Shown: positions 9,331 to 12,256 of the stretch, piece by piece
How the letters are laid out: every line of letters starts with the position of its first letter
Numbering within the stretch: the first letter of the stretch is position 1
DNA from: Escherichia coli
Lineage (GTDB): Bacteria; Pseudomonadota; Gammaproteobacteria; Enterobacterales; Enterobacteriaceae
Direction: 5' to 3' (one strand)
Assembly (NCBI RefSeq): GCF_036507355.1
Contig: NZ_AP027877.1
Length of the DNA: 64,000 bases
Made by a program: the position numbers and the translations under genes
The notes under the pieces: model-generated
What the model was told of the DNA's origin: nothing
Database searches by the model: none
Seen by the model: the letters and a program-made list of their open reading frames with translations, nothing else

Positions 9331-9513
9331 TCACAACCCGAAGATGTTTCTTTCGATTCATCATCGTGTTGCGAAAATTTGAGAGACTCACGAACAACTC
9401 TCGTTGTTCAGTGTTTCAATTTTCAGCTTGATCCAGATTTTTAAAGAGCAAAACTTCGCAGTGAACCTTTGCAGGTACACTCTGAAGTATTTTTTATTTA
9501 ATCACTACAGAGA

Positions 9514-9776: not shown

Positions 9777-11318
<1,542 letters not shown>

Positions 11319-11499: not shown

Positions 11500-11532
11500 C
11501 GTATATTACGCTTTCCTCTTTCAGAGTCAACC
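11500..11532 (-). promoter_or_regulatory. rrnH promoter P2
   Basis: Minus strand TTGACT (-35), about 16-bp spacer, TAATAT (-10); matches known rrn P2 architecture. Confidence 0.7.
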
Positions 11533-11599: not shown

Positions 11600-11700
11600 T
11601 CGATGGAGGCGCATTATAGGGAGTCATTTCAGGAAGACAAGCGGAAAAATGCATTTTTATTTCAACCGCTCATCTTTTAATCATTACGCCGGTTTTTGCT
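11600..11700 (-). promoter_or_regulatory. rrnH promoter P1 with upstream A/T-rich UP element / Fis-site region
   Basis: Minus strand reads cttgtcttcctgaaatgactccctataatgcgcctcc (TTGTCT -35, TATAAT -10); A/T-rich tract upstream (11641..11700) overlaps the gmhB 3' end. Confidence 0.75.
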
Positions 11701-12256
11701 GCTTTTTTATCGCTTGCGGCAGGTCTGCCAGGCTATTTAACACCCAATCTGCCGCGTTTTCTGCTTCAGGTGTAATAGGTTTACCCGTACGCACCAGCAC
11801 TTTTGTTCCCACGTTCGCCGCAACCGCTGCCTGCATATCTTCTAATTTATCGCCCACCATATAAGAAGCGGCCATATCAATATGCAAATAATCGCGTGCT
11901 GACAAAAGCATCCCCGGATGTGGTTTGCGGCAATCGCAGACCTGGCGAAACTCTTCAACACTACCCTGCGGATGATGCGGGCAATAATAGATACCATCCA
12001 GATCGACATCTCGGTCCGCCAGCGACCAGTCCATCCACTCGGTCAGCGTTTCAAACTGTGCTTCGGTAAATTTACCGCGAGCAATGCCAGACTGGTTGGT
12101 TACTACCACCAGCGCAAAGCCCATTTTTTTTAGCTCGCGCATGGCGTCAATAACACCGTCGATAAATTCAAAGTTGTCGATCTCATGGACATAGCCGTGA
12201 TCGACATTAATGGTGCCATCACGGTCAAGAAAAATTGCGGGTACGCTCTTCGCCAC
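11684..12256 (-). CDS. gmhB: D-glycero-beta-D-manno-heptose-1,7-bisphosphate 7-phosphatase
   Basis: 190-aa ORF; HAD-family motif FLDRDGTIN; start codon at 12254..12256 reads GTG; synteny (divergent from metN, upstream of rrsH). Confidence 0.88.

Follow-up and report, generated by a model that had tools for sequence, protein, structure and literature searches.

The gene gmhB of Escherichia coli stops a short distance before P1, the first promoter of the ribosomal RNA operon rrnH, which raises the question of whether the last codons of this gene are at the same time regulatory DNA of the operon or simply lie next to it. An initial annotation had proposed that the tail of gmhB doubles as upstream activating sequence for rrnH P1. 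We addressed this proposal in a window of 64,000 nucleotides from E. coli (contig NZ_AP027877.1), which is the whole stretch of DNA that was analyzed. Positions given as five-digit or four-digit numbers are those of the window, and signed positions are relative to the +1 of the rRNA promoter under discussion. The promoter elements and Fis-type sites described here are all read on the minus strand. The architecture of rrn P1 promoters is among the best studied in bacteria.

The junction of gmhB and rrnH lies on the minus strand of the window. A BLAST search of 5,426 complete E. coli genomes found this region in 5,425 of them, the matching segment being annotated as gmhB, and the neighboring genes metNIQ and rcsF are found in the same order as in K-12. 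The 190-aa open reading frame at 12256..11684 (minus strand, 573-bp coding sequence) encodes GmhB, a HAD-IIIA heptose 1,7-bisphosphate phosphatase, as shown by a full-length family profile match above the curated cutoff (TIGR00213, 337 bits, cutoff 149.6, residues 6–181). A second profile, NF006506, matches residues 4–187 with 285.6 bits (cutoff 178), and residues 188–190 extend beyond both profiles. The gene was aligned to its counterparts in E. coli PS10-3 and K-12, and an identical 573-bp coding sequence is annotated in E. coli SMS-3-5. A plus-strand open reading frame antisense to gmhB (11649..11864, 71 aa) was considered spurious, given that the region is already fully explained by GmhB. 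On the other side of the junction, the 16S rRNA gene rrsH (9777..11318, minus strand) was identified at full length with the Rfam model SSU_rRNA_bacteria (1577 bits); it is the first gene of the operon under P1 and P2, and downstream of it lie tRNA-Ile, tRNA-Ala and the beginning of the 23S rRNA gene (Rfam). Just upstream of the 23S rRNA gene, there is also an Rfam match to StyR-44 (9338..9446, 122.9 bits), which is the usual location of this element within rrn operons.

The P1 core promoter of rrnH extends over 11604..11640. It consists of the -35 hexamer TTGTCT (11640..11635), a 16-bp spacer, the -10 hexamer TATAAT (11618..11613), the discriminator GCGCCTCC and a predicted +1 at A 11604, which is located 286 nt upstream of the start of the 16S rRNA gene (11318). 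Both hexamers agree with the reading of the initial annotation; they are near-consensus (10/12 in the promoter scan) and share the register of the P1 promoters of all seven K-12 rrn operons. This +1 was assigned by aligning rrnH P1 with its six counterparts, and the accessible literature yielded no mapped start for rrnH. The discriminator and the A that follows it are present and conserved at rrnH P1. With the 16S rRNA gene of K-12 starting at 223,771 and a 286-nt leader, the P1 start in K-12 is predicted at 223,485. About 110–120 bp downstream of P1, and followed by the 16S rRNA gene, lies a tandem P2 promoter (11503..11530; -35 TTGACT at 11530..11525, 16-bp spacer, -10 TAATAT at 11508..11503; 9/12 in the promoter scan), an arrangement expected of the rrn P1 class. 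Counterparts of P2 are present in rrnB, rrnA and rrnG, where the -10 hexamer reads TATTAT instead of the TAATAT found at 11503..11508. A further small difference was seen at position 11626, which lies in the P1 spacer at -22 and is a T in the window and a C in all compared Escherichia; K-12 differs further (GAGCCGAC). An exact match to 11600..11720 was found in 0 of the 5,426 complete E. coli genomes, the best match being 120/121.

Where does gmhB end relative to this promoter? Its stop codon is the TAA at 11686..11684, exactly where the initial annotation had placed it, and it is directly followed by an in-frame TGA (11683..11681), the stop codon of the 191-aa K-12 allele. With the +1 at 11604, the TAA occupies positions -82..-80. 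The A+T content around the stop is 65–67% (65% in 20-nt windows spanning -90..-51), compared to 85% at -60..-41 and 50% in the gmhB coding sequence. The stop is thus part of a moderately A/T-rich stretch, but the earlier placement immediately upstream of the -35 hexamer was too loose, as the hexamer is about 40 bp away. The related idea of a stop codon inside the UP region, or of an UP element overlapping gmhB, does not hold: the UP-element region of rrnH P1 (GAAATAAAAATGCATTTTTCCG, 11642..11663, i.e., -59..-38; 73% A+T) is intergenic, has no overlap with gmhB and lies about 20 bp downstream of the stop. In comparison to the 17-bp UP consensus AAAWWTWTTTTNNNAAA (PMC2412878), it is a weak match, with 6/14 specified positions in the canonical register and no more than 8/14 in any other, versus 11/14 for the UP elements of rrnB, rrnA and rrnC. 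Nevertheless, most columns of this region are at least 90% conserved among the 72 related genomes described below. According to papers citing Hirvonen 2001, UP elements are present at each of the seven rrn P1 promoters, together with between three and five Fis sites.

Fis-type sites were scored in two ways, by the consensus Gnn(c/t)(A/g)(a/t)(a/t)(T/A)(t/a)(t/a)(T/c)(g/a)nnC with 11 scored positions (PMC2885671), and by a log-odds matrix derived from an alignment of 54 Fis sites of genes other than rrn (MotifAdjuster supplement, PMC2718512), which is independent of the rrn operons. As positive control, we used the footprinted Fis sites I–III of rrnB, which are centered at -71, -102 and -143 (PMC2885671). 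They scored 10–11/11 with the consensus and ranked first, second and third within -230..-60 with the matrix. At rrnH, the candidate for Fis site I is centered at -71, in the same register as rrnB site I (core GATTAAAAGATGAGC, 11668..11682; 10/11 consensus positions; 13.43 bits, p 1e-4). This exceeds chance expectation: only 0.25% of dinucleotide shuffles produced a 10/11 match at precisely this position. Among the K-12 rrn P1 promoters, five of seven reach at least 10/11 at -71, rrnD reaches 9/11 and only rrnE is without a match. The core starts 2 bp downstream of the gmhB TAA and overlaps the GA of the following TGA, and is thus located wholly downstream of the stop codon used in the window; in K-12, the site I core has two bases in common with the TGA stop.

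The other candidates are found on the upstream side of the stop codon, within gmhB itself. A 15-bp core centered at -134 (GGGTGTTAAATAGCC, 11731..11745) matches the consensus at 11/11 positions (7.85 bits, p 0.0015) and is contained in codons 171–176 (W V L N S L). Between this site and the stop, the last gmhB codons hold a middle Fis-type site that can be read in two overlapping registers (together 11688..11712), one centered at -101 (core CGATAAAAAAGCAGC, 11698..11712; 9.07 bits, p 0.0007) and one centered at -91 (core GCAGCAAAAACCGGC, 11688..11702; 4.0 bits, p 0.014). This stretch includes the codons AAA AAG CAG (codons 184–186, -103..-95), and its register is ambiguous: Escherichia sequences score higher at -101, those of most other genera at -91. 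The scoring that the initial annotation had suggested as a check yielded Fis matches at -71, -101 and -134, but only the weak UP match. By sequence, the additional upstream Fis-type sites (-101/-91 and -134) are those expected for the P1 class, and they are conserved in register. Regarding previous work, no Fis entries for rrsH or rrnH were found in the literature supplements that we searched. According to citations in other papers, Hirvonen 2001 and Maeda 2015 reported that Fis binds and activates rrnH, and the number of Fis sites at rrnH was confirmed by gel shift (Maeda et al. 2015).

Matches to such a motif have to be interpreted with caution. The Fis consensus is loose, with a match of at least 10/11 once per 504 bp in the window, and the -134 core encodes a conserved W-V-(I/L)-N-S-L in GmhB. 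One possible explanation could be that gmhB and the promoter are adjacent only, so that the UP region and the -71 site, both of which lie downstream of the window's stop codon, activate P1, and the Fis-like matches inside gmhB are by-products of the protein sequence and a degenerate motif. The conservation of these positions bears directly on this explanation. The comparative set was built with one genome per species and comprised 80 loci from genera including Escherichia, Salmonella, Citrobacter, Klebsiella, Raoultella, Kosakonia, Enterobacter, Kluyvera, Leclercia, Lelliottia and Franconibacter. Together with the window, 71 of these loci gave 72 sequences reaching P1, which are related, so that the counts are not independent. 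The same P1 was found in every sequence that extends far enough past gmhB. From the gmhB start to the P1 +1, the distance is 652 nt without any indels, and TATAAT is found at the identical offset in 72/72 sequences.

Across the 72 genomes, the median matrix score exceeded the 99th background percentile only at -71, -91 and -134, and 0/440 control positions in the rest of gmhB reached this threshold. The median was 9.15 bits at -71, 7.95 bits at -134 and 6.99 bits at -91, with 100%, 78% and 75% of the genomes, respectively, at or above the 99th background percentile. This clustering of conserved high scores in the last 150 bp before P1 argues against by-products of a degenerate motif. A second argument comes from synonymous positions. 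Codons 184–186 (AAA AAG CAG) show a synonymous heterozygosity of 0.02, 0.00 and 0.07, compared to a mean of 0.33 for two-fold codons, and represent the lowest of 157 three-codon windows of gmhB (permutation P = 0.003). Codon 185 is invariably AAG; the other Lys codons of gmhB vary between AAA and AAG, with six of seven being mostly AAA. The situation is different for the -134 core, where the synonymous dip is modest and not significant (rank 18 of 181). Its conservation is for this reason inseparable from the constraint on the protein, and we claim no synonymous constraint at this site. Finally, the equivalent sites of rrnB have been footprinted within a coding sequence, murI. Taking both sides together, we regard adjacency alone as distinctly improbable. 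Instead, the minus strand at 11600..11750 very likely represents the upstream activating region of rrnH P1, organized like that of rrnB P1 and with its upstream sites inside the end of gmhB. The proposal that the gmhB tail doubles as activating DNA is thereby supported by Fis-type sites in the coding sequence that are conserved in 72 related genomes, by codons almost devoid of synonymous variation and by the indel-free distance between gmhB and P1.

The invariant block could in principle be maintained for another reason. It consists of an A6 tract followed by GCAG, is located just before the stop codon in most genera, and its Fis register is ambiguous between -91 and -101. A real constraint at -108..-84 might accordingly reflect A-tract curvature, a binding site for H-NS or Lrp, or a signal in the gmhB mRNA such as termination context or 3'-end stability, and binding of H-NS has indeed been reported at the rrnH promoter region (PMC4696680). 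Fis is favored by the G and C that delimit the -91 register and, like those of the -71 register, are invariant (72/72 related genomes), by the high matrix scores, and by the presence of Fis sites at -71 and -91 in the tyrT promoter (PMC2885671). A termination-context signal is further disfavored by the fact that the stop codon moves over 18 nt, with the block remaining fixed relative to P1. Altogether, a constraint unrelated to Fis appears unlikely to us, and binding of Fis remains the preferred reading of this block.

The movement of the stop codon is in our view the most interesting by-product of the analysis, and it is an evolutionary one: a rigid register without indels is combined with a wandering stop. 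In the compared genomes, gmhB terminates at six in-frame positions, namely -97, -94, -91, -88 (the majority, 53/81), -82 and, in K-12 and most E. coli, -79. These were shifted by point substitution only and give rise to proteins of 185–191 aa. Within E. coli, the gene ends in GCG TAA TGA in the window (190 aa; 11681..11689) versus GCA CAA TGA in K-12 (191 aa), and most E. coli are like K-12. The 190-aa form, which is the one annotated in SMS-3-5, is shared by cryptic Escherichia clades and may therefore be ancestral within the genus. Three signs point to a constraint acting at the level of DNA, namely the fixed indel-free spacing, the near-invariant Lys-Lys-Gln codons at -103..-95 and the displacement of the stop by point substitution only. 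Based on the fixed register, the invariant AAA AAG CAG and the drifting stop, it is even conceivable that the C-terminal tail of GmhB (residues ~184–191) is shaped mainly by the needs of the promoter, its last residues being translated Fis-site DNA. We put this forward as a serious possibility, although we lean slightly against it.

Two additional observations emerged from the comparative set. In at least 70 draft genomes, the contig ends 60–700 bp past gmhB, as is expected beside an rRNA repeat, and gmhB is therefore a reliable marker of the assembly break at this rRNA operon in Enterobacteriaceae. Furthermore, contig CACSKA010000010.1, which is labelled Chryseobacterium sp. 18061, contains a gmhB of the Enterobacteriaceae type (88% amino-acid identity), joined to the same rrn P1. 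This junction is implausible for a genome of the Bacteroidota, and the contig is therefore likely a contamination or a mislabelled assembly.

As gmhB and rrnH point in the same direction, we also looked at the region between them for signals of transcription termination. The built-in terminator scan reported none on the relevant strand; it also missed the terminator of clpB upstream of rrnG and was therefore dropped as negative evidence. That terminator (K-12, about -146..-118 of rrnG P1) consists of CGAGCCCTTCGGGGCTCG followed by TTTTTG. It was recovered as positive control, with -13 to -17 kcal/mol, by a replacement search for a hairpin with a U-tract. With this search, no convincing intrinsic terminator was found from the gmhB stop to the 16S rRNA gene. 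The sole hairpin candidate is formed by an inverted repeat, GCGG...CCGC (11641..11669), whose arms fall in the 3' half of Fis site I and in the bases directly preceding the -35 hexamer; it brackets the UP region and has the -35 hexamer as its tail. An analogous repeat, AGCGAA...TTCGCT, surrounds the UP region of rrnG. RNA folding indeed gives a stem-loop here, followed by UUGUCUUC, and together with the rrnG analogue this might be taken as a weak gmhB terminator that keeps readthrough out of P1. However, the hairpin has a dG of -5.9 kcal/mol, a 21-nt interior and no proper U-tract, falling well short of the clpB control, and its fold z-score is only -1.86. There is no covariation either: in Kluyvera, the right arm has changed to CCTC and the left arm shows no compensating change. 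Moreover, both arms are already explained by the promoter elements they belong to. We rejected the hairpin as gmhB terminator, a role that we consider highly improbable. Because a convincing intrinsic terminator is absent, the sequence is consistent with gmhB transcripts running into the P1 region, which probably happens.

These results suggest the following picture of rrnH activation. RNA polymerase would bind to the near-consensus P1 core promoter, and the C-terminal domains of its alpha subunits would touch the UP region, which is A/T-rich and spans -59..-38. A Fis dimer at the -71 site would help to recruit the polymerase. With no more than about 80 bp between the end of gmhB and the P1 start, the Fis-type sites further upstream fall into its last ~20 codons, where the DNA would serve two purposes, encoding GmhB and activating P1. 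The stop codon itself is situated between the Fis-type site at -71 and the one at -91/-101. At most of the other rrn P1 promoters, the sites upstream of site I reportedly contribute more than at rrnB, a further point against mere adjacency. In addition, infrequent transcripts of gmhB, for which no convincing intrinsic terminator was found, would probably enter the P1 region.

How does this layout compare to known systems? A close parallel is rrnB, the analogy drawn in the initial annotation. Like rrnH, rrnB P1 has a 16-bp spacer, TATAAT, a GC-rich discriminator, Fis site I at -71 (a candidate site at rrnH) and two more Fis-type sites upstream on roughly the same helical face. In both cases, a co-directional gene ends in this region: the murI stop is located at -84..-82 of rrnB, so that the footprinted sites II and III lie inside murI, and the gmhB stop is located at -82..-80 here and at -79..-77 in K-12. 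The two promoters differ in the -35 hexamer (TTGTCT at rrnH, TTGTCA at rrnB), in the match to the UP consensus given above, and in the upstream sites, which are predicted at about -91/-101 and -134 for rrnH and footprinted at -102 and -143 for rrnB. In a reporter assay, the rrnH promoter region was the weakest of the seven (Maeda et al.). A similar arrangement is found at rrnA, where the co-directional hemG stops at -88..-86, a Fis-type site is present at -71 (11/11), and matches at -111 and -123 lie inside hemG; unlike those of rrnH, the core promoter and UP element of rrnA are identical to those of rrnB.

The stable-RNA promoter tyrT provides a parallel for the conserved -71/-91 pair of rrnH. 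Its Fis sites are located at -71, -91 and -122, the first two being ~20–21 bp apart, and one Fis site lies within the co-directional upstream reading frame purU. In contrast to rrnH, tyrT is a tRNA operon and not an rRNA operon, and cooperative Fis binding has been documented for it. At rrnG, the upstream gene clpB is likewise co-directional with the same kind of P1, but it stops at -154..-152 and is followed, before the activating region, by the strong intrinsic terminator described above. Therefore, there is no coding overlap at rrnG and readthrough is probably blocked. Among the K-12 neighbors compared, only clpB-rrnG has room for a terminator. The layout of gmhB-rrnH is thus not special: for the sister promoter rrnB, two upstream P1 Fis sites in the co-directional murI coding region have already been described, as has one tyrT Fis site in purU (2024 preprint).

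Beyond the correct annotation of the junction, the significance of these findings is small, yet they are of some practical relevance. An rRNA promoter can be disturbed when the 3' end of gmhB, or that of murI or hemG, is deleted, recoded or tagged. The scarcity of synonymous changes in the last gmhB codons should not be taken as selection on the protein or on codon usage, and the variable annotated length of GmhB (185–191 aa) reflects a stop codon that moves through regulatory DNA. If the tail of GmhB is indeed shaped by the promoter, the junction would represent a clean natural system to measure the constraint that a transcription-factor array imposes on an overlapping coding sequence, and it could show any effect of gmhB transcripts entering P1 and the rrn antitermination system.
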